NCBI GenBank assembly: GCA_035291665.1
Contig: DATDRP010000006.1
Coordinates: forward strand, 209,255 to 273,254
DNA: 64,000 nt
From: Patescibacteria group bacterium
GTDB taxonomy: Bacteria; Patescibacteriota; Microgenomatia; UBA8517
Reading direction: 5' to 3'
Both the position numbers and the translations under genes were made by a program. The notes under the pieces were generated by a model. It was not told the DNA's origin and searched no databases. It saw only the letters and a program-made list of their open reading frames with translations. Below, piece by piece: positions 1,857 through 54,715 of this stretch. How positions within the stretch are numbered: position 1 is the first letter of the stretch; every line of letters begins with the position of its first letter.

Positions 1857-2459
1857 ATGACGGAACGAAATAGACAATTTACTGCTCCACCGGAATTTTC
1901 CAAAACTTATACTGCTTCAACCGATTCAATTGGTCAAATGAGTATTGATTTAGGTAACGTCTTTGTCTGGTTGGGATCTTCAAGGGAAATGGGAAGCCGG
2001 ATGGCTTGGCATGAATATCTCCATATGATGGCGGATGGGGTAAGAGACGGACAGCTGGGATACCGGGTTGGCGCCTCTTCAATAGTTGCTTACTATATGG
2101 TTTTTGGGAAAAGAGATCCCGGGGAAATGATGAAAATTGCCTCGGCGCCGGGTTTTGGGGAAATGAGCGGACAGGATCACAACATTTATAACAGCGCAAA
2201 AACCGATTATTATCATGAACTTCAGGAAAAAGACAGGGAAAAGGTACGGGAAGATTTGAATGCGTATATCAAGATCAGAAATAAACTGCACGAGCTTGAC
2301 CGGTATGGAGGTCTCACACCGGACCAAATTGAAAAAATGGATTTCGGAATCTTCAGCGAGAATAAAGATCTTATAAAGCGAGCGGTAGATGAGGTGAAAA
2401 AAGAAATTAACGGAAACAGGAAAAACGATGTTTTAATGGAAAGAACGGTTATAATTTGA
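1857..2459 (+). CDS. hypothetical protein with HExxH-like motif (AWHEYLHMM)
   Basis: ORF track. Possible zinc-binding HEYLH motif. Otherwise unassigned. Confidence 0.4.
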   Translation: MTERNRQFTAPPEFSKTYTASTDSIGQMSIDLGNVFVWLGSSREMGSRMAWHEYLHMMADGVRDGQLGYRVGASSIVAYYMVFGKRDPGEMMKIASAPGFGEMSGQDHNIYNSAKTDYYHELQEKDREKVREDLNAYIKIRNKLHELDRYGGLTPDQIEKMDFGIFSENKDLIKRAVDEVKKEINGNRKNDVLMERTVII

Positions 2460-2485
2460 CATCTGGATGGGATTTAATATAGAAT
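2456..2485 (+). promoter_or_regulatory. candidate sigma70-type promoter TTGACA-N18-TAGAAT reading into the Arg-codon leader ORF
   Basis: TTGACA at 2456-2461 and TAGAAT at 2480-2485. The predicted transcription start falls at the leader ORF ATG at 2493. Confidence 0.3.
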
Positions 2486-2492
2486 ATCGCAA

Positions 2493-2552
2493 ATGTTTGA
2501 AGATTTCTCAGTCACCACAAAGCTAATTTTGTCTCTCCGCAGGAGAACATAG
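2493..2552 (+). CDS. candidate attenuation leader peptide MFEDFSVTTKLILSLRRRT (three consecutive Arg codons CGC-AGG-AGA before the stop)
   Basis: 19-codon ORF read from the sequence. The Arg codons sit directly 3' of segment 1 (TCTCTC, 2532-2537) of an alternative-pairing attenuator. See findings. Confidence 0.45.
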   Translation: MFEDFSVTTKLILSLRRRT

Positions 2553-2591
2553 CTTTTGGTGAGAGGAACTTAAATATTCCTGTTAATACGA

Positions 2592-2618
2592 CCTCTCACG
2601 AAAACGAGAGGTTTTTTT
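2592..2618 (+). terminator. intrinsic terminator CCTCTC-acgaaaac-GAGAGG plus T7, ending 5 nt before the ATG at 2624; part of an attenuator
   Basis: 6-bp GC-rich stem with an 8-nt loop and a run of 7 T. An upstream GTGAGAGG (2559-2566) can pair with CCTCTCAC (2592-2599) as an antiterminator. Confidence 0.6.
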
Positions 2619-2623
2619 GTATC

Positions 2624-3757
2624 ATGAAGGGAAAAAAAATGATTAAAGAAACAGAAAAACAACTAGCATTAGATCAAAAATCACTCACAGATAAATACTA
2701 TGAGTTTATAGATTTTTCTTATGACTATGGAGCAATCTCAGATTTCCCGGTTCCGGGAAAGAAGGGACTTAATAGATATTTGCCGCTATTGCCGGTTGAG
2801 AGTGTTGATACCAAGATAAAAAATTTGGGGAATACTCCTTTGGAAAAGGCTAAAAAATTTGGTTATGAGGTTGGTTTGTCTAATCTTTGGATCAAAAGAG
2901 AAGACTTGAACCCGACTGGATGTTTTAAAGACAGAGAAAGCGCGGTAATAATTTCAGCTGCGAAAGAAAGAAACATCACTTCAGTATATGTTGTTTCCTC
3001 TGGTAATGCGGCTTTATCTACAGCTAAGTTTGCGAAAGAAGCCGGTATAGCCTGCACCTGCTATGTACCTGAAAAGACCTCTAAAGAAAAGAAAGACCTT
3101 ATCCAAAAATATGGAGCAGAACTCGAATTGATTCCCGGTTTTTATGAAGATGTATATAGAACTGTTGTAGACATGCATCCAAAAGGATGGAACGTTACTT
3201 CTGGACAAAATCCATACAGAATCGAGGGCGGTAAAACGATGGCTTATGAAATAGTTGAACAATTAAAAGAAGTCCCTGATGTTGTTGTTATTCCGAGTGG
3301 AAACGGAGGTTGTTTGGCTGCAACATGGAAAGGGTTTAAGGAACTCAAAGAAATTGGAAAAATAGATAAACTACCAAAAATGGTGTGCGTACAAATAAAA
3401 GGGGCAGCTCCAATAAAAGTAGCTTTAGAACAGAACAAACCTTATGTGGTCCTCGGAGAAATTGAGGACTCAGTTGCTGAAGGAATTGTTGCTCAAGAAT
3501 CATATAACTCTCCACAAGCAGTCCAAGCTCTGAAAGAGTCGGGGGGCTATGTAATCGAAGTGAATGATTCGGAAGTAATCAGCGCTCTGAAGAAAATTAT
3601 AGAAACAGAATCTATCGTTCCTGAACCAACATCTGCAGCCACATTTGCAGCATTATACAAATTGGAAGAACAATCTGACTCACTTGTCGTTGCCGTTAAT
3701 ACTGGTGACGGAAAGAAAATGATAGATGAGGTTAAACATCTAATTCAGAAAACCTAA
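2624..3757 (+). CDS. PLP-dependent fold-type II enzyme, threonine synthase-like
   Basis: GNTPLE...REDLNPTGCFKDRES lysine motif and a Gly-rich SGNGG loop, typical of threonine synthase or threonine dehydratase family enzymes. Confidence 0.65.
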   Translation: MKGKKMIKETEKQLALDQKSLTDKYYEFIDFSYDYGAISDFPVPGKKGLNRYLPLLPVESVDTKIKNLGNTPLEKAKKFGYEVGLSNLWIKREDLNPTGCFKDRESAVIISAAKERNITSVYVVSSGNAALSTAKFAKEAGIACTCYVPEKTSKEKKDLIQKYGAELELIPGFYEDVYRTVVDMHPKGWNVTSGQNPYRIEGGKTMAYEIVEQLKEVPDVVVIPSGNGGCLAATWKGFKELKEIGKIDKLPKMVCVQIKGAAPIKVALEQNKPYVVLGEIEDSVAEGIVAQESYNSPQAVQALKESGGYVIEVNDSEVISALKKIIETESIVPEPTSAATFAALYKLEEQSDSLVVAVNTGDGKKMIDEVKHLIQKT

Positions 3758-3759
3758 AT

Positions 3760-4590
3760 ATGAGTATCGTAGAATCAATTAACGGAAAAGATAAACCCAA
3801 AGGAAATTGGATCAGTGTGGAACATGAGGGGAGTTTTCATCAGATAGAAATTGCAAAAACTCCGGAACAGTTGGCCGAAGCAAAGGCGCTTGATGATTTG
3901 GTTTTTGCCGGACATGTTGGTATAACAATGAATGAATTATATGAAATTGCTAATAATGGAGCGGTATTGCTCATGCGAGATATTAATGGGAATTTAATTG
4001 GAGAATCACAGGTAATAACCTCACCAATATCCGAACATCCTAATTTAGATAAAGATGAAGCTTATAATTATGGAACTGCTATATATCCGGGATTACAGAA
4101 TAACGGATTGGCTCAAGTCTTATTCAAAGCTCAAGAACAGATTGCAATCGAAGCTGGAAAATCAAAGAGCACTCTGACAGTCAGGCTTGAAAATGCCCAA
4201 AGCATCAGGGGAAGATTTAAATCTGGCTTCTACATTGTAGGCTATGATCCAAACCATTATGGTTCGTTCGAAGATGGTGGAGCAAGATTAATTATGGAAA
4301 AAAACCTTTCAAGAAAAAATGGGGTGGTCCCAGTACCTGTTCTTGCGGGAATGGTTGATCAGGGAAAGGTGAGAATTATAAATGGCCATACCGAAAGTCC
4401 CAATATGAAAGATGAGGGGTTGTTAATTGGAATCGGTGTTAATTCAGGCGACGAAATAGACCATGCGGCACATGTTGCTGTGAAAGAAGTTTTTGAAAAT
4501 AATAAACATCTTGGTATCGGTATTCTAAAGTCATGTGAATTTAAGACTAAAGTTGACAAAACAAGCCTGTTAGTTTTTACTGAAAAATAA
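3760..4590 (+). CDS. hypothetical protein, possibly GNAT-fold in the N-terminal half
   Basis: Weak GNAT motif-A-like LQNNGLAQVLF...IEAGKS segment. The assignment is tentative. Confidence 0.35.
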   Translation: MSIVESINGKDKPKGNWISVEHEGSFHQIEIAKTPEQLAEAKALDDLVFAGHVGITMNELYEIANNGAVLLMRDINGNLIGESQVITSPISEHPNLDKDEAYNYGTAIYPGLQNNGLAQVLFKAQEQIAIEAGKSKSTLTVRLENAQSIRGRFKSGFYIVGYDPNHYGSFEDGGARLIMEKNLSRKNGVVPVPVLAGMVDQGKVRIINGHTESPNMKDEGLLIGIGVNSGDEIDHAAHVAVKEVFENNKHLGIGILKSCEFKTKVDKTSLLVFTEK

Positions 4591-4600
4591 TTCACCTCAA

Positions 4601-5347
4601 ATGGTAAAAACAAATCCTTCGCATCTTAAGGAAAAATATAAATTATTATCAGAGAAATTAGATAGAGAATTACTTAAGATATCTTTCAAGGAAAATAAAG
4701 AAAATATAGTCTATTTGCCGGATTTAATAAAAAAACAAAATGTTGAGATGGTTATCAAGTACAAGGAAAATGCGTATTTAAGGGAATCAGTGGCTTTAAA
4801 TCTAATTAAAGCTGCAAAATATTTTAAAAATAAAAACTTTACTCTTGAATTGGAAAGTGCCTATAGAAGCATAAATGAACAAAAAAAACGGTTTATAAGT
4901 AGATATGCTTCAATTAAAAAAAAATATCCTAACAAACCAAAATCTGAATTATTGAAATTAGCAAATACATATACTGCAGGAATTTTAATATTAGCTGCTC
5001 ATACTGCAGGTGCGGCTGTTGATGTTCTTTTAAAAGACTGGAAAAATTCCAGTCTTGATTTTGGGACAGACTATCTTAATGGTGATGAAAAATCTGTTAC
5101 AGATTATCCTAATTTATCAAAAAAAGTTAAAGCAAATCGGAAAATTCTGAAAAAGGGTATGGAAAAATTTGGTTTTACTAATTACCCATTCGAATATTGG
5201 CATTACAGTATAGGTGATGTTTTTGCAGCTTATTTTAATAAACAAAAATATGCAAAGTATGGACCTGTTAATTATGATATGAAAAAAAATATCACAATAT
5301 TTTCGAACAATAAAAAAGATTTATATAAATTTTTTAAAATTAGATGA
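4601..5347 (+). CDS. M15-family zinc D-Ala-D-Ala dipeptidase-like protein (VanX/VanY-type)
   Basis: AAHTAGAAVDV matches the SxHxxGxAxD motif. EYWHYS matches the ExxH motif. Confidence 0.5.
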   Translation: MVKTNPSHLKEKYKLLSEKLDRELLKISFKENKENIVYLPDLIKKQNVEMVIKYKENAYLRESVALNLIKAAKYFKNKNFTLELESAYRSINEQKKRFISRYASIKKKYPNKPKSELLKLANTYTAGILILAAHTAGAAVDVLLKDWKNSSLDFGTDYLNGDEKSVTDYPNLSKKVKANRKILKKGMEKFGFTNYPFEYWHYSIGDVFAAYFNKQKYAKYGPVNYDMKKNITIFSNNKKDLYKFFKIR

Positions 5348-5898
5348 TAGAACAAGAAATAAATCCTCAAAAAAATGTAAAGATTGTTATCCCCGACACC
5401 TCTTCAGTAGGTGAATTTATCAATACAATCGAAGAAGTATCCAAATGGACACATTTTTATAAAGATACAATGTGGCCAAGGAGTCCTGAAAAAATAAAAA
5501 GTTACTTTCAGAAAGGACATTCTGTATTATTAGTAAATGAGAAAACCGATGAACTTCTTGCACATGGAGCGATAAAATGGATATCTGATGTTAATCCAAT
5601 ACTGGAAATAGGAACAGTTGTCGTTAATCCAAAATATAAAGGTTTAGGGTATGGTACTAAAGTTACTAAAGCGGTTATAGAACATGCGAACGTGATGTAT
5701 CCAGAAAAAACTCAGTTCGCGTTTTGTAATCCATCCAGCCTAGGGATATTAAAAAAATTAGGTGCTATCGAAGCACAAATAAACGATTTACCGCTAGAGG
5801 TATGGGAAGGATGCGCAACTTGCCCCAATAAACCTAAACCTGAAACCGGAAAATTTTGTTGCGATACGATTGTCTTTTTCCCTAAAGTCATTAACTAG
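5344..5898 (+). CDS. GNAT N-acetyltransferase with Cys-rich C-terminal tail
   Basis: Motif A VVVNPKYKGLGYGTK. C-terminal CATCPNKPKPETGKFCCD. Start overlaps the previous stop (ATGA). Confidence 0.55.
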   Translation: MIEQEINPQKNVKIVIPDTSSVGEFINTIEEVSKWTHFYKDTMWPRSPEKIKSYFQKGHSVLLVNEKTDELLAHGAIKWISDVNPILEIGTVVVNPKYKGLGYGTKVTKAVIEHANVMYPEKTQFAFCNPSSLGILKKLGAIEAQINDLPLEVWEGCATCPNKPKPETGKFCCDTIVFFPKVIN

Positions 5899-5917
5899 TT
5901 ATTAGTATCTAAATAAA

Positions 5918-6634
5918 ATGTCTGTCTCAAAAGAAATTTTTCAAAATGAGCATATTGTTTTACCTGTTATTCACGCGGAAACAGAAAACCAGGTTTTGGA
6001 CAATGCAAGAGTTGCATATGAGGCTGGTTGTGATGGAATATTTCTTATAAATATGAAGGATCCTACAACGTCCACCAGAATGAGCTACGAAAATCTTCGT
6101 AAGTTACACAAAATGGTACGTAGCGAATATGCCACTTGGTGGATCGGTGTAAATTATTTGGATTTACCAGCGGTTAAGGTTTTTGAAAATGTTGACTCTA
6201 CAGTTTCTGGAGTTTGGGTGGATAATGCGGAAATTTACGAATGGCTTGATAAGCAAGTGGCCGCGCATAAAATTCTTCAAGCCAGAGAGAATAGTGGTTG
6301 GCGTGGATTATACTTCGGAGGGGTCGCGTTTAAGTACCAAAAAGAAGTTGATAATCCAGGTCTTGCAGCAAAAATTGCAACTTCTTTTGTTGATGTTGTG
6401 ACAACCAGTGGTAAGGCAACAGGTTCTGCTCCCGATCTGGAAAAAATACGTTTGATGAAAGAATCTTTGGGAGAGTTTCCCTTAGCGATAGCGAGTGGTG
6501 TTTCTCCTGAAAATGTTAAGCAATTTATGCCTTATGCTGATTATTTCATTGTAGCAACAAGTATTTTGGTACATGGAACAGAAAACTTTGATATAAATAA
6601 AATTAAATCTTTAATTGACAATGTACGAGGGTAA
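5918..6634 (+). CDS. BtpA/SgcQ-family TIM-barrel protein
   Basis: N-terminal VLPVIHAE...AGCDGIFLIN and C-terminal TTSGKATGSAP...AIASGVSPENV...ADYFIVATSI match the BtpA family pattern. Confidence 0.5.
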   Translation: MSVSKEIFQNEHIVLPVIHAETENQVLDNARVAYEAGCDGIFLINMKDPTTSTRMSYENLRKLHKMVRSEYATWWIGVNYLDLPAVKVFENVDSTVSGVWVDNAEIYEWLDKQVAAHKILQARENSGWRGLYFGGVAFKYQKEVDNPGLAAKIATSFVDVVTTSGKATGSAPDLEKIRLMKESLGEFPLAIASGVSPENVKQFMPYADYFIVATSILVHGTENFDINKIKSLIDNVRG

Positions 6635-6719
6635 TTTCCCGGTAATAAGTCATATTAAAAATCGATATTATTAATTAATATTTGACTCCTATAATATAAA
6701 AAGAGTAGAATCCCCTTAA

Positions 6720-7634
6720 ATGTCGAAAGAGTCTACTATAGAGCAAGAAAAATTTGCGAAAGTTATACCACATATAGAAAATGAGTATTCGCCTCTTAAA
6801 AAAGTCTTAGTTAACAGGAATCCTCAATTGGTAACAACCTTTACAGATCTTGTGGTAAACCCTATACAAGGCAGATCTTTGGAAAAAGTTGAACATAGAG
6901 GAGAAATCAAAGTGCTTCCAGGTGCTGCTGAATGTCATGGAAATTTATTGAAGGTCTTATCTGAAAATGGTGTCGAACTTTTATATTCCGATGTTACTCC
7001 CATCAAAGAAGGTCATACACCACTCTTTACCAGAGATGTGGGGGTTGTTATTGATAACAGAGTATTACCTTCCAAAATGAGGTACGAGTATCGTTCAGTG
7101 GAGGTTCCGGAAATGTTGTCCAAAATTTCTGATGGCAGCATTATCAGAACAAACCAAGAATATAAAATAGAAGGAGGGGACGTCGTTTTTTTGGAACCAA
7201 ATCTTCTTCTAATTGGTATTGGTCCCCGAACCGATGTAAATGGATTAAATTTATTGAAGGGTATTTACCCGGGTAAAGAATTTATATCTTTTTCAACAGT
7301 CCGTAAAGAAGAAGCATTTCACATTGATACAAATTTGGGTATTTTGGGAAAGAAGCATTTGGTATATCTTCCCGAACTTGTCCCACAAGATGTTGTTAAC
7401 CTCTTAAAAGATCGGGATTATACATTTGTTGAAGCCGAAATGTCAGAACATGATACTTGCTGTACAAATATATTAGCTATTAATGATAGGAGAATAATCG
7501 CCCCTGCTGAAAATAAAATTACGAACTCAAGGATTCGAAAGTCGGGGGTTGAGGTAATAGAGGTATCACTTAAAGACATATTATCTTTCGGAGGGGGCCC
7601 TCACTGCTTAACACTCCCTCTTGTCAGAGATTAA
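6720..7634 (+). CDS. pentein-fold guanidino-group modifying enzyme (amidinotransferase / DDAH / arginine deiminase superfamily)
   Basis: N-terminal EYSPLKKVLVNRNP motif. C-terminal GGGPHCLTLPLVRD with the catalytic Cys in the position seen in arginine deiminase, DDAH and amidinotransferases. Confidence 0.6.
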   Translation: MSKESTIEQEKFAKVIPHIENEYSPLKKVLVNRNPQLVTTFTDLVVNPIQGRSLEKVEHRGEIKVLPGAAECHGNLLKVLSENGVELLYSDVTPIKEGHTPLFTRDVGVVIDNRVLPSKMRYEYRSVEVPEMLSKISDGSIIRTNQEYKIEGGDVVFLEPNLLLIGIGPRTDVNGLNLLKGIYPGKEFISFSTVRKEEAFHIDTNLGILGKKHLVYLPELVPQDVVNLLKDRDYTFVEAEMSEHDTCCTNILAINDRRIIAPAENKITNSRIRKSGVEVIEVSLKDILSFGGGPHCLTLPLVRD

Positions 7635-7637
7635 ATT

Positions 7638-8522
7638 ATGACAAGTGAACAAGAAGAAAAAAATATTTCTGACGGAAAAGATGCAAAGATTAATAATTCT
7701 GAGTTAGACGCAGTTAAAAAAGATACATACGTTAAAATTAAGTCAGAGTTTCCTGGAATAAGTCAGGAATTAACTGACACATTTTTAAAATACTTTTATC
7801 AGGACAACTCAATAAAGTATAAGACTAGTAACAGAGACATTGTCACCAAAGCGGATTTAGAAATCGAAAAAATATTTACAAGCTTTATCCATAAAAGATT
7901 TCCAAAACATAGAGTCGTAGGAGAAGAGACTTACGATCCACACGAAAAAGAACGAAGTGATTGGGTTTGGTATATTGATCCAATTGACGGTACAACAAAT
8001 TTTGCCCACCATAATGAAGAATGTGCCATCATGGTAGGTTTATTGCACAAACACCGACCTTTTTACTCTTGGATTAATTTTCCTGTAAAAAATCAAACTT
8101 ACACTTCGATTCCCAACGAAGGTTGCTACTTGAATGGCCAACAAATTGTAAGAATTCACGACAGGGAAGTTGAGCTTAATAATTCTCTGTTGGGTGTTCT
8201 CCAAGAAAGATCGTTGGAAGAATTCACAAAGATTTACAAAAATGTATGGAATAAAAATCAGGGAACACGAATTTATGGTTGTTCCGCTAGCCTATTTTGC
8301 AGGTTGGCAACGGGTGAGCTTGATGCATCAATTATAAAAGAATCTTATATTTGGGAATATGCATCAGGATTGTTGATAGCATCCGAATCTGGATGCTCAA
8401 CACATGTTGTTAACGGCAATCTTTTCAATGATAAAAAAACAGATTTGATTTTAGCCAGAGATAAAGGTTTACTTAATAATTTAATTCCTTTGGTAAATAT
8501 TCAAAAGGAGAAATTAGAATGA
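7638..8522 (+). CDS. inositol monophosphatase family phosphatase
   Basis: WYIDPIDGTTNFAHH matches the WxIDPIDGT motif, with an upstream EE metal-binding pair. Confidence 0.75.
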   Translation: MTSEQEEKNISDGKDAKINNSELDAVKKDTYVKIKSEFPGISQELTDTFLKYFYQDNSIKYKTSNRDIVTKADLEIEKIFTSFIHKRFPKHRVVGEETYDPHEKERSDWVWYIDPIDGTTNFAHHNEECAIMVGLLHKHRPFYSWINFPVKNQTYTSIPNEGCYLNGQQIVRIHDREVELNNSLLGVLQERSLEEFTKIYKNVWNKNQGTRIYGCSASLFCRLATGELDASIIKESYIWEYASGLLIASESGCSTHVVNGNLFNDKKTDLILARDKGLLNNLIPLVNIQKEKLE

Positions 8523-8538
8523 AAGAAAATGATAGGAT

Positions 8539-9075
8539 ATGATCGAAAATAGAGAACATCTAATTCCTAAGAATATAGTTTTTTTTGACGCCGACAAAAC
8601 CTTATGGCAGGTTATTACAACTGACGGATCAGACGATTGGTCAAGTAAAGTTAAAAATGCAACTTTCTTGCTTGATGATGGAAACACCGTTACCAGGAAA
8701 GAAAATGGGACAAAATTTGTTTTAAAGGATGAAGTGAAAGAATGTTTGGAAAAACTGTCAAAAGAAGGGATAGGAATCGGATTAATAAGTGACAATGAGC
8801 CGGAAGATGTTAAAAAAATAACGGATTTATTTGGGATCTCTGAATTTTTTGACTCAAAACTTATAAATGTTAGTTTATGGGAAGGTCCATGTCCGAAAGA
8901 AGTGATGATTACGGAAGTGGTTGAAAAAATCGGATCAGAAAATTTCTCAAGAGTACTGTTGGTTGATGATAAAGATTATAGTGAGGCAATGAAAAATTCA
9001 GGTTATTCATTTATACAATCTCCAAAGGACAGCTTTCCCAAAGAAATTGTTTTGGACTACTTTGGATTAAAATAA
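8539..9075 (+). CDS. HAD-superfamily phosphatase, MDP-1-like
   Basis: IVFFDADKTLW (DxDxT motif I resembling MDP-1 VVFDLDYTLW). LLVDDKD motif. Confidence 0.5.
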   Translation: MIENREHLIPKNIVFFDADKTLWQVITTDGSDDWSSKVKNATFLLDDGNTVTRKENGTKFVLKDEVKECLEKLSKEGIGIGLISDNEPEDVKKITDLFGISEFFDSKLINVSLWEGPCPKEVMITEVVEKIGSENFSRVLLVDDKDYSEAMKNSGYSFIQSPKDSFPKEIVLDYFGLK

Positions 9076-9183
9076 TCAGTAAGTGATTCGTCTGTTGGTA
9101 TTCCTAATTAGATTGATCAAGAAACGGACCATCGGTGAATGAAGAATTAAGAAGTTTATGAAAATTGTTAACGTCATGCGAGC

Positions 9184-9212
9184 TTACAAGCAATATATCA
9201 TTAATGTATATT
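9184..9212 (+). promoter_or_regulatory. candidate promoter TTACAA-N17-TATATT upstream of argG
   Basis: Sequence match to the sigma70 consensus, about 95 nt upstream of the argG ATG. Confidence 0.35.
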
Positions 9213-9306
9213 TCTCACCAATAAATGTATACTTATAAATTATTAAATAATTGGAGTAAGTTTTTATAGTGGTTGCCCACCTAAAAGATGGGTTTTTGAT
9301 GATAAA

Positions 9307-10566
9307 ATGGACTTTCAAAAGAATGATTATGTGAGAGTAGCTTCTTACGAAGGACAACCCGGTAAAGTCAAGAAAGTTGTCTTGCTTTATTCAGGTGGTT
9401 TGGATACTTCAATAAGCCTTAAGTGGATCCAGGATACCTACAAGGCGGAAGTGGTTACGCTCACGGTTGATTTAGGGCAACCTACGGAAGACATTAGTCT
9501 TATAAAGAAAAAGGCTCTTAAGTTAGGGGCAAAAGCTGCTTATGTACTTGATTTGAAAAGAGAATTTGCAAACGGTTACATTTCAAAAGCAATTAAGGCA
9601 AATGGATTATACGAAGGTAAATACCCTTTATCAAGTGCAATATCGAGATATGTGACTGTTAAGGCAGGCGTCGATATAGCGAGAAAAATTAAAGCTGATG
9701 CAATTGCGCACGGATGTACTGGTAAAGGTAACAGTCAGGTAAGGTTCGACCTAGCAATAACAACACTAGACCCAAAGTTAAAAGTAATTGCCCCAATTCG
9801 CGAGTGGGGTATATCAAGGGATGCTGGTTACAAGTATGCAAAGGAAAACAATATACCAGTCGTAATCAACAAAAAAACCTTATACTCAGTTGACGAGAAT
9901 CTTTGGGGAAGAGGAATTGCAAGCGGTATACTTGAAGATCCATCAAAGGAACCTCCTCAGGATACATTAGGCTGGGTAACACGACCTGAAGATGCACCAA
10001 ATAAACCGGAGTATGTCACATTAACCTTCAAAAATGGTGTTCCTACAGAATTGAATGGAAAGAAAATGGAACTGTACAAGCTTATTATGAAGCTTAATAG
10101 TGTTGCTGGAAAACATGGTGTCGGGTTAATTGACCACGTTGAAGATAGAATTGTTGGACTTAAATCTAGGGATTATTATGAATGTCCAGGAGCAGTAACG
10201 ATATTAGAAGCCCACAAGGATCTAGAAAAATATGTTTGTACTATTCATGAGAATCTATTCAAAGAGATTATTGATAGTAAATGGGCACAGATGGCATATT
10301 TTGGATTGTGGTTTGATCCTCTCATGGATGCTCTGAATGCGTTTGTTGATGTGGTAAACGAAAAGGTAACTGGAATAGTTAGACTAAAACTTTATAAAGG
10401 TGTAGTTATTGTTGTAGGGAGGGAATCAAAATATGCGCTTTATGATATGAAACTAAACACTTACTTTACAGGGCAAACCTTCAATAGACAGGCTTCAACT
10501 GGATTTATAGAGCTCTTCGGTCTCGAAAGTAAAATGGCTAATTTACTAAGAAAGAGTAATCGTTAG
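9307..10566 (+). CDS. argG: argininosuccinate synthase
   Basis: VVLLYSGGLDTSISL (PP-loop SGGLDTS), plus overall length and conserved blocks typical of ArgG. Confidence 0.9.
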   Translation: MDFQKNDYVRVASYEGQPGKVKKVVLLYSGGLDTSISLKWIQDTYKAEVVTLTVDLGQPTEDISLIKKKALKLGAKAAYVLDLKREFANGYISKAIKANGLYEGKYPLSSAISRYVTVKAGVDIARKIKADAIAHGCTGKGNSQVRFDLAITTLDPKLKVIAPIREWGISRDAGYKYAKENNIPVVINKKTLYSVDENLWGRGIASGILEDPSKEPPQDTLGWVTRPEDAPNKPEYVTLTFKNGVPTELNGKKMELYKLIMKLNSVAGKHGVGLIDHVEDRIVGLKSRDYYECPGAVTILEAHKDLEKYVCTIHENLFKEIIDSKWAQMAYFGLWFDPLMDALNAFVDVVNEKVTGIVRLKLYKGVVIVVGRESKYALYDMKLNTYFTGQTFNRQASTGFIELFGLESKMANLLRKSNR

Positions 10567-10774: not shown

Positions 10775-11986
10775 ATGGCTGAACTTATTAAGACATCAGA
10801 ATACTTCATAGATCTAGAAAATAGATTTGGTGCCAGAAACTATAAGCCGTTAGACGTTGTAATTGAAAAAGGTGATGGTGTTTGGGTGACCGATGTCAAC
10901 GGAAAAACCTATATTGACATGTTAAGTGCTTATAGTGCTCTTAACCAAGGACACAGGCACCCGAGAATTGTCGAAGCCGCCCAAAATCAGTTGAATAAAA
11001 TTACACTTACTTCAAGAGCTTTTAGAAATGACCAATTCGGACCATTTATTGAAAAGTTGAGTGAAATAACTAATAAAGAAATGGTACTTCCGATGAATTC
11101 AGGATCAGAAGCTGTGGAAACCGCATTAAAAACAGCAAGAAAATGGGGGTACAAGAATAAATTGAAGGAGGATGAAGAAGCTCGGATTATTGTTTGTCGG
11201 GGCAACTTTCATGGGAGAACTATTAGCGTGATTAGTTTTTCTACTGAAGAACAATATCGGGATGGCTTTGGACCATACACACCCGGTTTCGATGTGATTC
11301 CATACGGGGATACAAATGCGTTGGAAAACGCGATAAAGCCAAATACTGTAGGATTTTTGGTTGAGCCAATTCAAGGTGAAGGTGGTGTAATAGTTCCTCC
11401 AAAAGGATACTTGCGTGACGCTTTCGACATTTGCCGAAAAAATAATGTACTTTTTATGGCCGATGAGATTCAAACTGGTTTGGGAAGAACTGGTAAAATG
11501 TTTGCCTGTGATCATGAAAACGTAATACCCGATGTTTATATTTTGGGTAAAGCACTTTCTGGCGGAATACTTCCTCTTTCTGCCGTAGTAGCAAATAAAA
11601 ATATACTTGGGGTATTTGAACCTGGTGATCATGGATCAACTTTTGGAGGAAACCCCCTGGCTTCAGCGGTAGGTCTTGCATCGCTTAATGTTCTGGTTTA
11701 TGAGAATTTGGCAGAGAACTCTGCTCAAATGGGAGAATATTTTCAAGATAGATTGAAAAGGATGGAATCTCCCCATGTTAAAGACATAAGAGGAAAAGGA
11801 CTTCTTATTGGAGTTGAATTGGAACCCGCTGCCGGAAAAGCCCGAGGTTTTTGTGAGCGGTTGCAGGAGGTGGGGGTGTTGGCCAAAGAAACCCATGATG
11901 TTGTTGTTAGATTTGCTCCTCCACTAATAATTAATAAGAATCAAATAGACTGGGCAATGGAGGGAATCGAAAGTGTCTTTAAATAA
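10775..11986 (+). CDS. rocD: ornithine aminotransferase (class III PLP aminotransferase; ArgD/RocD family)
   Basis: Near-identity of blocks to RocD/OAT: GARNYKPL, DMLSAYSALNQGHRHP, KITLTSRAFRND, FHGRT, EIQTGLGRTGK, THD..VRFAPPL. An acetylornithine aminotransferase (ArgD) role cannot be excluded. Confidence 0.8.
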   Translation: MAELIKTSEYFIDLENRFGARNYKPLDVVIEKGDGVWVTDVNGKTYIDMLSAYSALNQGHRHPRIVEAAQNQLNKITLTSRAFRNDQFGPFIEKLSEITNKEMVLPMNSGSEAVETALKTARKWGYKNKLKEDEEARIIVCRGNFHGRTISVISFSTEEQYRDGFGPYTPGFDVIPYGDTNALENAIKPNTVGFLVEPIQGEGGVIVPPKGYLRDAFDICRKNNVLFMADEIQTGLGRTGKMFACDHENVIPDVYILGKALSGGILPLSAVVANKNILGVFEPGDHGSTFGGNPLASAVGLASLNVLVYENLAENSAQMGEYFQDRLKRMESPHVKDIRGKGLLIGVELEPAAGKARGFCERLQEVGVLAKETHDVVVRFAPPLIINKNQIDWAMEGIESVFK

Positions 11987-12030: not shown

Positions 12031-13188
12031 ATGACCGAACACGAAAAACTATTATCAAGTCTTATTGAAATAAAGTCATACTCAGGTGAAGAGAAAGATA
12101 TTCGTGGTTATATAAAAAAATGGTTTAAAGAGCGGAAAATTGATTCTTTTCGGCAGGATGAAAATTTAATAGTTCATTTTGAAGGTGCAGACAGGTCCAA
12201 AGCATTTATTTTTAATTCCCATATGGATACTGTCAATAGGGGGGACGCAGCTTGGGAATATGGACCTTGGAAGCCAACTAAAGTAGGAAATACGCTTGTT
12301 GGATTAGGAGCGAGTGATATGAAGTCCGGACTTACAGCTTCAATGATTTTGGCGGAAAAATATTCGAACGAAAAGCCCCCAGTTGATCTTTGGTTCACAT
12401 ATGTGACAAGAGAGGAAGTAGATGGTTCCGGAACCGATAGTTTTGCACGGTGGTTCTCTCAAAATAAGTACAACATTCAATACAAAGACAAGGCGGGGAT
12501 ATTTACTGAGCCTACGGGATTGAAAGAAATTGAACACGGACATAGAGGCAATTTATTCTTAATCGCGCAAGCAGAGGGTGAATCCGGACATTCATCTCGA
12601 CCTGGCGATATTAAAGGAACTTTAGCAGTGAAACAAATGTTTAATTTTTCTCAATCTTTTCAAGAACAAGTAAAGTTATGGAATGAAAAATATCAAAGTA
12701 AGTATTTTAATCCGGCAATCACTTTGGGAGAACTAACCTCAATCCAGGCGGGTGTAAACGTTGTTACAAAAAACGGACTTCCCGTAATAGTTCCAGCGTC
12801 ACCAAATAAATTTCCGTCTCTTTGCGTTGCGACATTCGATTTGAGAACCACACCGGAATTTCATGCTGCAGCTTTGAAGAAAGTCGAAGATTTAGCCAAA
12901 AAAGAGGGAATTAAGGTTGATTTACTCTATCCGGAAGCACCTGCTGGATTTACTGACCCTCAAGAAAAGATTATTGAAATAACGAAAAGTAAAGTACCGG
13001 ATGCAATATTGAAAGTATCGCAAGGATCGGCTGATTTGGGCTTTTTAACAGGGTTGGGAATAAAAGCAATAATATTTGGTCCCGGTGAAAAACTTCAGGC
13101 ACATAAGACTAATGAATATTGTTATCCTGTTAAAATTCCTCAAGCAGTTGACCTATATCAAGCAATCGTCGAATCTTGGGCAAAGTGA
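12031..13188 (+). CDS. M20-family metallopeptidase (ArgE/DapE-like deacylase)
   Basis: FNSHMDTV, GLGASDMKSGL and E..G motifs of the M20 family. 385 aa. Confidence 0.7.
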   Translation: MTEHEKLLSSLIEIKSYSGEEKDIRGYIKKWFKERKIDSFRQDENLIVHFEGADRSKAFIFNSHMDTVNRGDAAWEYGPWKPTKVGNTLVGLGASDMKSGLTASMILAEKYSNEKPPVDLWFTYVTREEVDGSGTDSFARWFSQNKYNIQYKDKAGIFTEPTGLKEIEHGHRGNLFLIAQAEGESGHSSRPGDIKGTLAVKQMFNFSQSFQEQVKLWNEKYQSKYFNPAITLGELTSIQAGVNVVTKNGLPVIVPASPNKFPSLCVATFDLRTTPEFHAAALKKVEDLAKKEGIKVDLLYPEAPAGFTDPQEKIIEITKSKVPDAILKVSQGSADLGFLTGLGIKAIIFGPGEKLQAHKTNEYCYPVKIPQAVDLYQAIVESWAK

Positions 13189-16115: not shown

Positions 16116-17786
16116 ATGGCTGTAGAAAAAAAAATTGAGGCTGAAATTCTTACAAAAGCGTTGATTAAACAACAGAGTATAAGCAAACCTGGTGAGGCAG
16201 AATATAGGATTGAAGAGACTAAATTAGCCGAACAAATAAACAAATGGTTTGAGGAAAAAAATGTTCCCTCCTTTTTACAAGAACTCCCAGACGGTCGAAA
16301 AAACGTTTTCGCATTTGTAGCAGGGAAAAGAGATGAAACAATAGTAATTGCTGGTCATTTTGATACGGTTGATGTTAAAGATTATCTTCGAATGAAACTG
16401 CATCCTTTCGACTCTGACACCTTGGCTGAAGAGCAAGAGATTGATACTGAAAGGTATGTTGTCGGTAGGGGTGCTTTTGACATGAAATCAGGAATTGCTG
16501 TTGGGATGACCTTAATGAATAAATGGAATGAAAATAAAGATAATCTTAATGGATCAGTGCTTTTTGTTGCCACATGTGACGAAGAAAACGATTCTTTCGG
16601 GATACTCAATGCGGCCGATGTTCTACTAGCCGCAAAAGGTAGCGCAATTGATGACGGTAAATTAACCAATCAAGTCAAAAAGCTTACTGGAGGTAGAGAA
16701 CTAAATTTACAAGGAGTAATAAACATGGATTATACAACTGAAAGATTCCCTGGAGATAAAGAATACCATGTTTGGAGTGGAACAATAGGAAAACTTTTAC
16801 CAAGTATAATTGTCAGGGGAAAAGAAACGCATGTGGGTGAACACTTTGGTGGTTTTCATGCCTCATCCTTAATGTCGAGAATAGTTTCAGAATTTGAAGG
16901 AAATATGGAATTTGCAGGGAATAGCGTTCCTCCAACTGTCCTTAAATTGAGTGATGGTAGAGATTTATATAATGTTATGACTGAGAGTACTTTAAGAGCG
17001 TATGTAAATGTGTTTAGTGTAGGCCAAACACCCGCTGAAATCATAGATAAGTTGAAAGATAAAGTGACCCAGGTTGTTGGCGATTATTCAGAATCAATTA
17101 AAAACAATTATGGAATTTACAAAAATAGAATGGGTTTACCAAATGAGGTTGAAATCCCCGATTGGGGAAAGCGAACGAAGGTTATGACCTATTCCGAGCT
17201 ATTGGGGTTGGCTAATGAGAAAATCGGAAAAAGTGAAGTAGACAATCTTATAAAGAAAATAGCCTCAACTGTTCAAGGTGACGGGAGAGATGTAAGTTTC
17301 GCCATTGTTGACGCTTTGCTAACAAGTTCAGAGCTTAAAGATCCCGCTGTTATAATTTTCTACTCTCCACCTTACTATCCCTATATTAAACCTGATAATG
17401 GGAAACTCTATGAAGCGACAAAGGCAAAATCTGATGAAGTTGGAAAAGAATATGGTGTATCAATTACCATGCATCACTTTTATCCTTATATTTCGGATAT
17501 GAGTTACCTGAAACTTGAACCGGAAATCAGTTCAAGTATAAATAAATTAACCGGAGAAATGCCTGTCTGGGGTGTAGAGAACGAAAATGGAAAAAAGGTT
17601 TATCACGTCGATCTTGATAAAGTGGCTAAATTGGGGTTACCTGTAGTCAACGTTGGTCCTTATGGACATGGGGCGCATAAAACCGAAGAAAGGGTAGAGA
17701 AGAAGTATTCGTTCGAAATTCTTCCTGATCTGGTAGATCGTATTGTCAATAATATATTTAATGATGACAAAACCCCTTCATTGTGA
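16116..17786 (+). CDS. RocB-like M20-family peptidase (arginine utilisation protein RocB family)
   Basis: GHFDTVDV and GRGAFDMKSG M20 motifs in a roughly 556-aa protein. Size and motifs resemble Bacillus RocB. Confidence 0.6.
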   Translation: MAVEKKIEAEILTKALIKQQSISKPGEAEYRIEETKLAEQINKWFEEKNVPSFLQELPDGRKNVFAFVAGKRDETIVIAGHFDTVDVKDYLRMKLHPFDSDTLAEEQEIDTERYVVGRGAFDMKSGIAVGMTLMNKWNENKDNLNGSVLFVATCDEENDSFGILNAADVLLAAKGSAIDDGKLTNQVKKLTGGRELNLQGVINMDYTTERFPGDKEYHVWSGTIGKLLPSIIVRGKETHVGEHFGGFHASSLMSRIVSEFEGNMEFAGNSVPPTVLKLSDGRDLYNVMTESTLRAYVNVFSVGQTPAEIIDKLKDKVTQVVGDYSESIKNNYGIYKNRMGLPNEVEIPDWGKRTKVMTYSELLGLANEKIGKSEVDNLIKKIASTVQGDGRDVSFAIVDALLTSSELKDPAVIIFYSPPYYPYIKPDNGKLYEATKAKSDEVGKEYGVSITMHHFYPYISDMSYLKLEPEISSSINKLTGEMPVWGVENENGKKVYHVDLDKVAKLGLPVVNVGPYGHGAHKTEERVEKKYSFEILPDLVDRIVNNIFNDDKTPSL

Positions 17787-18334: not shown

Positions 18335-18421
18335 TGAATACAATTTCTAAGGCTAATATTTGAACAGTAATAGTAATAACTTGACAGTATGATATATACT
18401 ATATACACATTTATTATAAAT

Positions 18422-18466
18422 ATGAGACGTGCTCGTACACTTAGAAATACCAGGAGGATTAATTGA
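18422..18466 (+). CDS. candidate Arg-rich leader peptide MRRARTLRNTRRIN
   Basis: 14-codon ORF with 6 Arg codons (AGA CGT CGT AGA AGG AGG), read from the sequence. Directly followed by two hairpin-plus-T-run structures. Confidence 0.35.
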   Translation: MRRARTLRNTRRIN

Positions 18467-18483
18467 ATCCTTTTTTACTTTGA

Positions 18484-18506
18484 CCCGCGATAAGCGGGTT
18501 TTTTTT
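18484..18506 (+). terminator. intrinsic terminator CCCGC-gataa-GCGGG plus T8, ending 5 nt before the ATG at 18512
   Basis: Perfect 5-bp GC stem with a run of 8 T. A weaker hairpin GGATT-aattg-AATCC plus T6 lies at 18456-18476. Confidence 0.6.
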
Positions 18507-18511
18507 GACTT

Positions 18512-19828
18512 ATGGCAGAAAGAATTAGAGTAGAACAAAAAGAATTAAAAACCCCCGATATGGGTGTATTTGAAGAGACGGCAGAACTGAAAAGGGTGAT
18601 GATGTGGGGACTTCCCGGAGCAGAAACTGTTTTGGGACAACTGTTACCTAAAAAAAGGAGTTGTTTTCAAAAATCTTTTAATGTTTCAGAAGCCAGAGAT
18701 GAGATGGAAGGCGCAATGGATTTGCTCAGAAAAAAAGGAGTTGAAATTTTTGTGGTGAAGGACGAATGGGCAAAAATGATCCAAGAAAAAGGAATAAAAG
18801 CAGATTACGGAATTGATGAACTTAAATCAGAATTAAAGGATAAGGGGGAGTACTTGTACCTGAAATATAAAAAAGAACGCGATGAGGAATATCAAAAGGA
18901 AAAGAAAGAAGCATTGGAAAAAGGGGAAAGGCCTGAAGAACCTGCTGGTCTGGAAGTTTTGGAACTCTTGGACTCAATATTAGACGCAGATGTTAAAAAA
19001 TATGGAGAGAATGCGGCAGTCGTAATGAATCAGAAACTATCCATTGATGGATATTGCTGTAAAGACGGAGAAAATCTTCCTTTGTCAAATATTTTTTACG
19101 CGAGAGATCAGTCAAACCTGATGGGCTCAACATGGATTTGGTCGTCAATGAAGCATGAAATCAGAAAAGCAGAAGTTCCGATTTATAAAGAAGTTGTCAG
19201 ATATTCCGGAATTCTTAAGGATCAGGGTATTACTGAAGTGAATGTCGAGGAAACAAAAGAAGGTGTAGGATTGTTTGAGGGTGGGGATGGGATTGTAAAT
19301 AATGGTATAGCATATATAGGTCTTGGCGGACGATCCGATCTCGAAGGAATAAAACAGGCGGCAAAACCAATTCTTGAAAGCGGATTGAGACTCGTGATTT
19401 GTCGGGATAGAAATAGGGCGCGTTTGGGTGAAGACGAAATGGACGCGATGCATCTGGATACTTTTTGGATGCCTACGGATTTGAATGAAGTAGTTGGATG
19501 TCCTGATGAGATAAAAAACAGGAAAGCATTTGAAGTTTATTTGGATGAAAAATCTCAAATTAAATTTAAATCATTGGGGAGTTTTTCAGATCATTTGCAT
19601 CAGAGGGAGATTGATATGGTGCCGTTAACGATAGACGAACAAAGAAAATATGCTCCGAATTTTCTTAACCTGGGTGGAGGGATTATCATACTGTCATTAG
19701 CGAATGGTAATAACTTGACGGAAGAACTAACCAGTAGGGGAAAAGTTGTTTATAACGCTGATTTTCAGGAGGTTACCAAAGGTTTCGGGGGGCTACATTG
19801 TGCTACCGCTTCACTTTTAAGAGTTTAA
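18512..19828 (+). CDS. pentein-fold enzyme, arginine deiminase-like (amidinotransferase superfamily) with a long charged insertion
   Basis: MGVFEETAELKRVMMWGLPGAE resembles the ADI/DDAH N-terminal motif. C-terminal GGLHCATASLLRV holds the catalytic Cys. The true start may be the internal MGVF at 18560. Confidence 0.55.
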   Translation: MAERIRVEQKELKTPDMGVFEETAELKRVMMWGLPGAETVLGQLLPKKRSCFQKSFNVSEARDEMEGAMDLLRKKGVEIFVVKDEWAKMIQEKGIKADYGIDELKSELKDKGEYLYLKYKKERDEEYQKEKKEALEKGERPEEPAGLEVLELLDSILDADVKKYGENAAVVMNQKLSIDGYCCKDGENLPLSNIFYARDQSNLMGSTWIWSSMKHEIRKAEVPIYKEVVRYSGILKDQGITEVNVEETKEGVGLFEGGDGIVNNGIAYIGLGGRSDLEGIKQAAKPILESGLRLVICRDRNRARLGEDEMDAMHLDTFWMPTDLNEVVGCPDEIKNRKAFEVYLDEKSQIKFKSLGSFSDHLHQREIDMVPLTIDEQRKYAPNFLNLGGGIIILSLANGNNLTEELTSRGKVVYNADFQEVTKGFGGLHCATASLLRV

Positions 19829-23522: not shown

Positions 23523-23893
23523 ACCGTTTCGATTATTTCGGAATCAAATTCTATACTTTTTACCTTTATGCTTGTTGGATTATATTTGTCAAAAGCTGAC
23601 TCTAAGGCGTTTTTAAATTCCCCTTCCTCTTTCTCGACGCAAGCCACCAAATCTATATGGACAGTATTATATTCCGGCCAGGTGTGTATAACCAAATGAG
23701 ACTGAGATAGTACGAAAATTGTTGTTGACCCGCCGGGTTGGAAATTGTGAATAAATTTTTCGACCAGATTCAGATTTAAATTACTTATGATAGTTTGTGC
23801 AACGGCCTCGATTGCGGACTCAGAATCCTCGAACGATTTTAATTTTATCAACCCGACAAATTGTTTAATCAGCGGTGTAGATTTTTCCTGCAT
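23519..23893 (-). CDS. speH: S-adenosylmethionine decarboxylase proenzyme, SpeH (class 1b pyruvoyl enzyme) family
   Basis: FVLSQSHLVIHTWPEYNTVHIDLVACVE aligns with the SpeH processing/active-site block (VxSESHxxIHTWPE...DxFTC). Gln replaces the usual Glu before the pyruvoyl Ser. Confidence 0.7.
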   Translation of the reverse strand: MQEKSTPLIKQFVGLIKLKSFEDSESAIEAVAQTIISNLNLNLVEKFIHNFQPGGSTTIFVLSQSHLVIHTWPEYNTVHIDLVACVEKEEGEFKNALESAFDKYNPTSIKVKSIEFDSEIIETV

Positions 23894-24848: not shown

Positions 24849-24991
24849 ATTGAACCAGATTCTATTTGTTTGAATATGCTTTTGTCAAGGAAAAGCAACT
24901 AAGATTTTCTTTGTAAGCAGTTATTTTGATGCATAGAAATTTTTGCCTCAATTACATATTTAACCAGGAAGTTTAGTGTTAGAATTAAACG

Positions 24992-54500: not shown

Positions 54501-54715
54501 ACCTCACCTTTATACCCTGCGTTCGCGATTGCTTTTAGAATCAAGTCTCTATTTATTTCTTGGTCTGCAGTTAAAAAGCCATCACCAGTTTTATGATCGA
54601 CAGACACGGTATCAACGCCTGGAATATCAGAAATCTCATCTTTTATAAGCATCTCACAGCTTTTGCAGTGCATTCCGTTGACATTAAATTTGACTGTATT
54701 TTTTCCGTTTTTCAT
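51548..54715 (-). CDS. copA: P1B-1 (CopA-type) Cu(I)-transporting P-type ATPase with two N-terminal HMA domains and an extra C-terminal domain
   Basis: GMHCKSC and GMHCTSC HMA motifs, CPC (VIACPCALG), [19 protein letters not shown]. About 170 aa beyond the last TM have no ATPase counterpart. Confidence 0.85.

Follow-up and report, generated by a model that had tools for sequence, protein, structure and literature searches.

How is the cluster of enzyme genes that begins at position 2624 of the DNA examined here controlled, and to what signal does it answer? The DNA is a stretch of 64,000 nucleotides (nt), called the window throughout, from an uncultured Patescibacteria group bacterium (assembly GCA_035291665.1, contig DATDRP010000006.1, positions 209,255 to 273,254). 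Directly upstream of the cluster it carries a compact element made up of a promoter, a short leader open reading frame (ORF) with arginine codons near its end, and a set of alternative RNA hairpins. An original prediction, made from the sequence alone, had proposed that stalling on these Arg codons works through competing 1:2, 2:3 and 3:4 pairings and induces the cluster when arginyl-tRNA is short. Our analysis supports that proposal. The conservation of the leader, the probable T-box leaders and the classical attenuator (locus L095) found before orthologous operons, and the linkage of the operon to argS and tRNA-Arg genes all suggest that the element is a ribosome-mediated leader-peptide transcription attenuator sensing charged tRNA-Arg, a reading to which we give a probability of roughly 0.8. 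The arginine-linked cluster would most likely be switched on when charged tRNA-Arg runs short.

The element begins with a promoter and a leader ORF, both of which the original prediction had recognized, including the 18-nt spacer of the promoter and the CGC-AGG-AGA run of the ORF:

2456-2461, + strand: -35 hexamer TTGACA, overlapping the TGA stop codon of the upstream ORF 1857-2459
2480-2485, + strand: -10 hexamer TAGAAT, with an 18-nt spacer to the -35 hexamer
2493-2552, + strand: leader ORF of 19 codons plus TAG, read directly from the sequence, encoding MFEDFSVTTKLILSLRRRT followed by the stop
2538-2546, + strand: Arg codons CGC AGG AGA, the putative regulatory codons, read by three different tRNA-Arg isoacceptors

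The promoter (2456-2485) agrees with the consensus at 11 of 12 positions and ranks second among the promoter matches of the first 12 kb of the window. From the position of its -10 hexamer, transcription is predicted to start at about 2491-2493, that is, at the ATG of the ORF or 1-2 nt before it. No Shine-Dalgarno (SD) sequence lies upstream of this ATG (2493), and because the ATG sits at the predicted transcription start, the mRNA of this upstream ORF (uORF) is probably leaderless. The absence of an SD sequence is no objection to translation of the uORF, since the genes of the window hardly use one: an SD-like tetramer was found at only 3 of 47. A -10 box of the TAGAAT type stands 6-10 nt before the ATG at the genes 6720, 23865-24848 (- strand) and 24992, which suggests that leaderless initiation is usual in this organism and leaderless mRNAs are widespread; examples of upstream regions with the -10 box close to the ATG are 6682-6719, 24849-24893 (- strand) and 24960-24991. 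Arg codons make up 3.6% of all codons in the window, CGC being the least frequent of them. A hidden ORF started from GGGAGG or AGGAGA was also considered and rejected, there being no conserved start codon downstream of either and hardly any use of SD sequences in the genome.

The RNA of the leader is predicted to be strongly structured, with a minimum free energy (MFE) of -43.9 kcal/mol against -25.2 +/- 3.5 kcal/mol for shuffled sequences (z = -5.4; none of 200 shuffles as good). Both the MFE and the centroid fold consist of a long imperfect hairpin, P1 (2492-2578), followed by a terminator. The segments that take part in the alternative pairings are as follows:

2504-2525, + strand: segment 1, the 5' arm of the anti-antiterminator hairpin P1, from the MFE and centroid folds and from covariation with the 3' arm
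2534-2546, + strand: apical stem-loop of P1, UCUCC / GCA / GGAGA, in which UCUCC 2534-2538 pairs with GGAGA 2542-2546
2550-2568, + strand: segment 2, the 3' arm of P1, holding the TAG stop codon 2550-2552, a 6-nt spacer and the antiterminator 5' strand
2559-2566, + strand: antiterminator 5' strand GTGAGAGG (GTGGGAGG in most relatives), of which at least the first 4 nt are also used by P1
2592-2599, + strand: segment 3, CCTCTCAC, partner either of segment 2 (antiterminator, 8 base pairs, bp) or of segment 4 (terminator)
2590-2618, + strand: intrinsic terminator with stem 2590-2597/2606-2613, an 8-nt loop and a T7 tract at 2612-2618

Within P1, according to both folds, GUGA 2559-2562 pairs with UCAC 2512-2515 and GAGGAA 2563-2568 with UUUCUC 2504-2509, GUGAGAGGAA (2559-2568) being the strand that engages both of these partners, and the stop codon with its flank (2550-2556) pairs with 2519-2525. 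The entire leader ORF lies inside P1 with its Arg codons at the tip of the hairpin, where the second and third of them form the 3' strand of the apical stem. For segment 1 the original prediction had chosen another pairing, TCTCTC 2532-2537 with GAGAGG 2561-2566, which is complementary on paper but absent from the MFE and centroid folds and not conserved. Its other two pairings stand. The strand GTGAGAGG (2559-2566) is perfectly complementary to CCTCTCAC (2592-2599) and gives an unbulged antiterminator helix of 8 bp; the terminator, whose T7 tract ends 5 nt before the ATG at 2624, is formed by the 3:4 pairing (6-8 bp). Both pairings use the same CCUCUC, and the two hairpins are nearly isoenergetic, at -9.5 to -13 kcal/mol for the antiterminator and -10.5 to -11.6 kcal/mol for the terminator. 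The motif formed by segments 2, 3 and 4 occurs once in the 64-kb window and in none of 100 dinucleotide shuffles. When transcripts cut after segment 3 were folded with no ribosome, the MFE structure of 7 of 9 leaders contained no antiterminator, the box of segment 2 being held by P1.

Relatives for comparison were gathered by an alignment-based scan of metagenomes for homologues of the ThrC-like protein encoded by the first regulated gene, together with exact-protein matches. The metagenome homologues of this protein are 50-84% identical to it, and the few with names are Patescibacteria, Buchananbacteria and Microgenomates. Genome contigs searched with the single ThrC-like protein yielded nothing closer than threonine-synthase relatives of at most 37% identity, of no use for leader comparison. 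The leader was compared across 14 metagenomic loci, given here by labels such as L055, that comprise 10 distinct leader sequences and 9 distinct peptides, and in which the regulated ThrC-like gene is orthologous at 74-84% protein identity. The hexamer TTGACA (TTGACT in L088) stands at the same place in every related leader that has upstream sequence to compare, the spacer between the -35 and -10 hexamers is 17-18 nt, and the distance from the -10 hexamer to the ATG is 7-9 nt in nine of the ten distinct leaders and 12 nt in the remaining one. The ORFs of the relatives are 15-19 codons long and always in frame, with an ATG that is invariant (10/10 distinct leaders). The N-terminal part of the peptide is variable and its Arg-rich end, RRR-X-stop, is conserved, as seen across the nine distinct peptides; those of the relatives include MFEILSFTTKLVKSLRRRV, MSKKFQFTATITLRRRV, MSNGFLISAAADSRRRI, MKTNLTATITLRRRG, MFKKFITATISLRRRI (L079 and also L083), MSLKYSINTAVTDSRRRA, MFKKLATTIFFRRID and MFKNFTSAAISLRCRI. 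The Arg run, which ends 1-2 codons before the stop, is RRR in eight of the distinct leaders, RR in one and RCR in one, and its first codon varies at the third base only (CGC/CGT/CGA), bases 1 and 2 being invariant. In all ten the stop codon falls exactly 6 nt before GTGRGAGG, and this is followed in the relatives by an invariant CCTCTCAC, then by GAGAGG and a T-run. No relative retains the hairpins while having lost the uORF or its Arg codons, a combination that the original prediction had named as speaking against it: the uORF, the stop position and at least two Arg codons are kept in 10 of 10 distinct leaders.

Two of these leaders are particularly informative. In L090 the apical stem has been rebuilt as UAUUUU/AGAAUA with CGC AGA kept (peptide end RR-I-D), and in L091 the apical stem is largely lost with CGC-UGC-AGA kept (peptide end RCR-I). 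By comparison of sequences, they allow the constraint on coding to be told apart from that on the RNA, with the Arg codons appearing to outlast the local stem.

Every leader folds into P1 plus the terminator, with z-scores from -3.1 to -7.4. Alignment of the whole leader with MAFFT and RNAalifold mis-registered the 5' arm of the window and of L055 by 3 nt, and the pairs of P1 were tabulated anchored on the invariant box instead. Relative to this anchor, compensatory changes were found at -1 (C-G to U-A), at -3 (A-U/C-G/G-C) and at +3 (U-A to C-G), and the change of the stop codon from UAG to UGA is compensated in the 5' arm. For six core pairs across nine leaders, 51 of 54 combinations are canonical in register and shifts of 1-2 nt give only 16-21 of 54; pairing is likewise good after shifts of 3 nt, the arms being 3-nt periodic, and the anchor was taken from each leader's own MFE fold. 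The comparison thus bears directly on the ORF, its Arg codons, the spacing to the box and the covarying arms of P1. The covariation that had been proposed as a check on segments 1-4 is present for P1 (1:2), and segments 2-4 give no covariation signal, being invariant except for one A/G position at which either base still pairs with a U of segment 3. Such invariance is expected, because segment 3 must match two partners at once, and its complementarity to both segment 2 and segment 4 is likewise read from the comparison. Finally, promoter, uORF, P1, antiterminator and terminator accompany the downstream gene as one unit, the upstream neighbours differing among the 14 loci (in the relatives, tRNA-Arg arrays, an M20 peptidase and hypothetical genes).

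In the mechanism that we propose, transcription would start about 7 nt after TAGAAT, giving an RNA that begins at the AUG or 1-2 nt before it, and a ribosome would load on this 5' end without an SD sequence. With no ribosome on the leader, or once the ribosome has departed, P1 would form (2504-2525 with 2550-2568, plus the apical stem) and hold the first half of GUGAGAGG, so that CCUCUCAC would be available to GAGAGG, and RNA polymerase would be stopped 5 nt before the ThrC-like gene by the terminator and its U7. With Arg-tRNA plentiful, the ribosome would reach the stop codon 6 nt before GUGAGAGG, its leading edge would cover the start of that strand, and the terminator would again form. With Arg-tRNA scarce, the ribosome would stall on CGC-AGG-AGA and melt P1, so that GUGAGAGG would stay exposed and pair with CCUCUCAC once the latter is transcribed; the terminator would then come too late and the operon would be transcribed. 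A ribosome covers roughly 12-15 nt downstream of its P or A site. While its A site holds the second or third Arg codon, it would unwind the 3' arm of P1 and stop short of the box, and at the stop codon it would reach 1-5 nt into the box, a footprint model that the invariant 6-nt spacing between stop and box fits.

Several observations weigh against this mechanism, or against parts of it. When the full-length RNA was folded at equilibrium with a ribosome-sized stretch forced to be unpaired, the terminator was favored in every state modelled. As equilibrium folding always favors the terminator, the putative switch must, on this modelling, be kinetic, as in classical attenuators. When stalling occurs at the first Arg codon, the ribosome does not cover the outer portions of the two P1 arms, and a naive constrained fold of truncated transcripts re-pairs these portions around the ribosome; equilibrium folding was replaced here by truncated-transcript folds combined with footprint geometry, and such folds form artefactual pairs 'around' the ribosome. 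In trpL and hisL the regulatory codons lie within segment 1, whereas here P1, the 1:2 hairpin, encloses the whole ORF and has the Arg codons at its tip. Two relatives have only two Arg codons, and AGG AGA also form the 3' strand of the apical stem, so that part of their conservation could be structural. On the sequences compared, the antiterminator and terminator pairings are supported by complementarity and not by covariation. Every comparator is an uncultured metagenomic contig, and it is from the neighbouring genes only that we infer a role for the operon in relieving arginine shortage.

Part of this evidence could be read in other ways. Were the ORF incidental and the element an RNA-only sensor, the tip of P1, C-CGC-A-G, would bind the tRNA-Arg anticodon or an RNA-binding protein and thereby shift the balance between the hairpins. 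The loop CCGCAG (2537-2542) is indeed identical to the T-box stem I loop of L060, L092 and L094, the apical stem depends on the second and third Arg codons as well, and the CGC/CGU/CGA variants of the first codon would be readable by one inosine-containing anticodon; the tRNA-Arg sets of the relatives, however, have GCG and not ACG anticodons, and in L090 and L091 the loop context is destroyed while the Arg codons persist. The window element also has no T-box sequence, UGGN bulge or K-turn, and a search of 2300-2800 against Rfam at E <= 10 gave only chance-level matches, the best of which was Yfr10 at 21.9 bits against a threshold of 43. A sensor of this kind would leave unexplained why the ATG at the predicted start is invariant, why the frame is kept over 15-19 codons and why the stop, whether UAG or UGA, stays 6 nt before the box, and we consider it unlikely. 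The absence of regulation, with the hairpin and T7 serving only to terminate constitutively or to insulate the ThrC-like gene from the genes upstream and with the ORF and alternative pairings there by chance, would agree with the strong terminator that follows a gene ending at 2459 and with the equilibrium fold of the full-length RNA, in which the terminator always prevails. It would, however, have a near-consensus promoter fire into a terminator with no gene between them, and it is at odds with the movement of the whole unit with the downstream gene across 14 loci of differing upstream neighbours and with the perfect and invariant 8-nt complementarity of GTGRGAGG to CCTCTCAC, a motif found in 0 of 100 shuffles; we regard it as highly improbable.

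The conserved peptide end could also be taken to act as a nascent chain, an RRR-X (+X+ type) arrest sequence that stalls the ribosome on a small molecule such as arginine, ornithine or an antibiotic. Free arginine or ornithine is sensed in this manner by the fungal arginine attenuator peptide and by SpeFL, and antibiotics by the Erm leader peptides. Stalling would then switch on the GNAT and VanX-like genes as putative resistance genes, and the cluster does include acetyltransferases and an M15 D-Ala-D-Ala-dipeptidase-like protein. RRR-X-stop is moreover the only conserved part of the peptide, and R-x-R motifs are known in antibiotic-responsive leader peptides (PMC8632094). Against this, the end is not strictly conserved, being RRID-stop in L090 and RCRI-stop in L091 and with T, V, I, G or A as the residue after the Arg run, and the residues upstream of it, which are normally needed for arrest, are variable. 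The T-boxes that replace the element in relatives sense tRNA charging and not drugs, and the linkage to argS and tRNA-Arg points to Arg-tRNA supply. We think an arrest peptide has little chance of being the correct explanation, and attenuation through charged tRNA-Arg remains the reading that we prefer.

The genes that this attenuator would control are arranged as follows:

2624-3757, + strand: ThrC-like pyridoxal-phosphate enzyme, the first regulated gene (Pfam PALP, 4e-72)
3760-9075, + strand: the rest of the probable operon, its extent taken from gene spacing only

For the ThrC-like gene there are two candidate in-frame starts, ATG 2624 and ATG 2639. The double ATG (12-15 nt apart; ATGAAG...ATATG) is conserved in the relatives, and database homologues of the protein start at the position of 2639. 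The 3' arm of the terminator, GAGAGG, lies 10-12 nt before the first ATG (2606-2641 in the window, and in the related leaders), and its sequestration may have an extra translational effect. The genes between 3760 and 9075 encode a GNAT-like protein, an M15 dipeptidase, a second GNAT, BtpA, a pentein (ADI/DDAH-like), an IMPase and a HAD protein; a promoter of the leaderless type at 6682-6711 may start a second unit at 6720.

The original prediction had noted that the downstream genes are not canonical arginine biosynthesis genes, which is correct for the first 9 kb and not beyond, where argG, argD-like, argE-like, ADI-like, argS and relA genes lie at 9.3-23.5 kb. Together with the operon they make up an arginine island on the + strand (2639-23522). 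After the HAD gene it contains argG, for argininosuccinate synthase (9307-10566), and a class-III argD-like aminotransferase gene (10775-11986), continues with M20/argE-like peptidases (12031-13188 and 16116-17786) and with alpha/beta hydrolase, GNAT and MBL genes, and ends with an ADI-like gene (18512-19828), argS (19830-21608) and relA/spoT (21675-23522). The ADI-like protein encoded there has a 100% identical counterpart in a MAG labelled 'Patescibacteria group bacterium'. Patescibacteria are generally described as lacking amino-acid biosynthesis, and an arginine island is unusual for a genome of this group. Before argG, the region 9183-9306 has a promoter-like CTTACA with an 18-nt spacer and TATATT (9183-9212), a small ORF without Arg, MYTYKLLNNWSKFL followed by a stop, and a weak hairpin ending in a T-run (about 9273-9297, CCCACC..UGGG UUUUU); it may be another leader.

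The linkage of the operon to arginine functions is also seen in the comparison of relatives. The argS gene is downstream, in the same orientation or operon, in L065, L068, L092 and L095, and is adjacent in L089. In L084 the promoter of the attenuator is preceded, at a distance of about 85 nt, by a tandem array of six tRNA-Arg genes (tcg, gcg, cct, ccg, tct, gcg), and tRNA-Arg genes are found upstream of the ThrC-like operon in L065 (1581-1655), L070 (2053-2126) and L071 (1250-1400). The L084 array (2138-2768) covers all isoacceptors, and a further tRNA-Arg region is present in L061 (22-534). In L070 and L071 a single ORF of about 225 amino acids without a Pfam match lies between the tRNA and the ThrC-like gene. 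The conserved module itself consists of the ThrC-like, GNAT-like and M15 dipeptidase genes, often with BtpA, pentein, M20 peptidase and phosphatase genes. We suggest tentatively, and with less than even confidence, that it may be an unrecognized arginine-supply route or a tRNA-Arg-linked pathway of Patescibacteria. If so, the attenuator would label a new pathway by its function, and do so in organisms believed to be without amino-acid biosynthesis.

Other leaders of an arginine type are found before orthologous operons. In L060, L092 and L094 the element of the window is replaced by probable T-box leaders, with partial copies in L064 and L093:

L060, 85-307: probable T-box leader (Rfam RF00230)
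L092, about 2700-2990: probable T-box leader (Rfam RF00230)
L094, 1549-1797: probable T-box leader (Rfam RF00230)

Matches to RF00230 score 30.0 bits (E = 5e-5) and 32.6 bits (E = 7e-4); lacking about 76 nt of the distal stem I, they do not reach the gathering score of 93, and standard annotation therefore misses these T-boxes. The T-box sequence (GGUGGNACC), the IIA/B element and the K-turn all align to RF00230 in these sub-threshold matches. In stem I the K-turn is followed by a 5-bp stem with covariation at four of its five pairs (GUCUA/UAGAC versus UCCCG/CGGGA). The loop of this short stem, C-CGC-A-G, is invariant in L060, L092 and L094 and comprises an Arg codon and then the usual purine, and the bulge is UGGU (L060, L094) or UGGC (L092). 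CGC would be the specifier by analogy with the documented T-boxes of naturally truncated stem I, which rely on their K-turn together with stem II and the IIA/B pseudoknot (PMC7583486).

The more distant locus L095 (62% identity; operon of ThrC-like, GNAT, M15 and argS genes) has a classical attenuator (z = -5.05). Its uORF, MKKLDVLVIDARVREAS followed by a stop (2831-2884), has an SD-like AAGGA upstream and carries CGA-GUA-CGA in segment 1, and its pairings are an antiterminator GGGGGUU:AACCCC and a terminator CCCCGC-CAA-GCGGGG with U6 (about 2916-2936). The region 2280-3000 of this locus holds two devices in tandem, a T-box-like element (K-turn UGAUGAG, loop ...GUGCGAAGG, and GCGUGGUACCACG at about 2519-2531) and, about 200 nt later, the attenuator. 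A third leader type precedes 77%-identical orthologues in L057 and L058 (about 3840-3950) and in L089 (about 2880-3000). It has a conserved promoter (TTGACA, a 17-nt spacer and TAAAGT, with the ATG 7 nt past the -10 hexamer) and lacks RRR, the GTGRGAGG/CCTCTCAC motif and the terminator; the ORFs of these leaders are mutually dissimilar.

The window has a second Arg-rich uORF within its arginine island, in the region 18381-18511 before the ADI-like, argS and relA genes:

18422-18466, + strand: uORF ending in TGA, MRRARTLRNTRRIN followed by the stop, with 6 Arg in 14 codons
18452-18474, + strand: hairpin AGGAGGAUU/AAUCCUUUU after the second uORF, within 18381-18511
18482-18507, + strand: strong terminator ACCCGCG..CGCGGGU with U8, directly before the ADI-like, argS and relA genes

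An ortholog in L096 (75% protein identity) has a uORF, MISSYIKLMERRKTS followed by a stop, and a terminator, with AGG AGG kept. An antiterminator pairing was looked for at the second uORF (18422) and was not found. Elsewhere in the window, two heavy-metal P-type ATPase or metal-handling genes on the - strand (51548-54715 and 55024-56859) share an upstream motif (54716-54765 and 56860-56910, both - strand) composed of AATTCCTCC, a hairpin and GGTTTCCTTGAAAYTG directly before the start codon; it may be a common operator or 5' untranslated element.

One uncharacterized operon is thus preceded in different lineages by three devices, namely the leaderless RRR attenuator, the CGC T-box and the classical Arg attenuator, all of which appear from their sequences to read the charging of tRNA-Arg. 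These three putative tRNA-Arg-sensing devices, taken with the linkage to argS and tRNA-Arg genes, provide strong comparative evidence that the genes serve arginine or Arg-tRNA supply, and this role is now directly testable. The families described so far include no terminator-type attenuator specific for arginine, there being no Rfam model and none in the literature searched. At gathering thresholds Rfam gave no family match in the leader region, and on the basis of the Rfam scans the T-box, PyrR, ykkC-type and Trp/His/Leu/Thr/Phe leader families were rejected for the window element. We know of no Arg leader family in Rfam 15. A literature search of incomplete coverage found no terminator-type attenuator with an Arg leader peptide, no report of T-boxes in Patescibacteria and nothing directly matching on argS T-boxes.

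Leader-peptide attenuation is textbook biology, and arginine operons are normally under repressors of the ArgR/AhrC type. Judged at the level of sequence, the element has every feature by which the trp/his/leu class of attenuators is recognized. There is a leader ORF of 15-19 codons with a usable start in 10 of 10 distinct leaders (translation being predicted), with clustered Arg codons and an operon linked to argS, tRNA-Arg genes and argG. The 1:2, 2:3 and 3:4 pairings are mutually exclusive, P1 being supported by folds and compensation and the others being invariant. An intrinsic terminator lies just upstream of the first gene, in all relatives too, and the stop codon is placed for occlusion of segment 2 in all 10 leaders, given a footprint taken from general knowledge. 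Compared with trpL, hisL, leuL, thrL, ilvL and pheL of Proteobacteria and with the trp, ilvB and leuA leaders of Corynebacterium, the element has the same short ORF with a run of cognate codons, the same three overlapping pairings with the terminator directly before the first structural gene, and the same placement of the stop codon, at which a terminating ribosome masks segment 2; like them, it is proposed to be on when the charged tRNA is scarce. It differs in that the amino acid is arginine, in that the uORF has no SD sequence and sits at the predicted 5' end of the RNA, and in that the host is an uncultured member of the Patescibacteria (candidate phyla radiation).

The leaderless polycysteine small ORFs (sORFs) of mycobacteria, the 'Cys ribulon', act on translation (Canestrari et al., bioRxiv 10.1101/834739). 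By analogy, the two systems would share a leaderless sORF as first cistron, a codon run for one amino acid and a stalled ribosome that remodels the RNA, as well as the presence of several loci per genome with the same principle, here two, at 2493 and 18422. They differ in amino acid (Arg and not Cys), in output (an intrinsic terminator with U7 and not the sequestering or unmasking of a ribosome-binding site, RBS) and in phylum. The sensor ORF of the window would extend the mycobacterial idea to transcription termination and to Patescibacteria, in which gene regulation is essentially unexplored. The leader ORF of speF in Salmonella and E. coli, orf34/SpeFL, has in common with the element consecutive Arg codons in a uORF that reports arginine supply through mRNA folding. 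Control of speF is reported to involve Rho-dependent termination, unfolding of the RBS and, in a long leader, structures sensitive to RNase G (Ben-Zvi et al. 2019, PMC6386406); as described there, speF has no 2:3 and 3:4 pair of antiterminator and terminator, and its ORF uses a normal initiation region. With the T-boxes of truncated stem I (the actinobacterial ileS type; PMC7583486) the element would share, by analogy, both the signal, uncharged tRNA, and the antitermination output. Unlike them, it contains no T-box sequence, UGGN bulge, K-turn, stem II or IIA/B pseudoknot, and its sequence suggests that it reads tRNA charging through a translating ribosome and not by direct binding of the tRNA.

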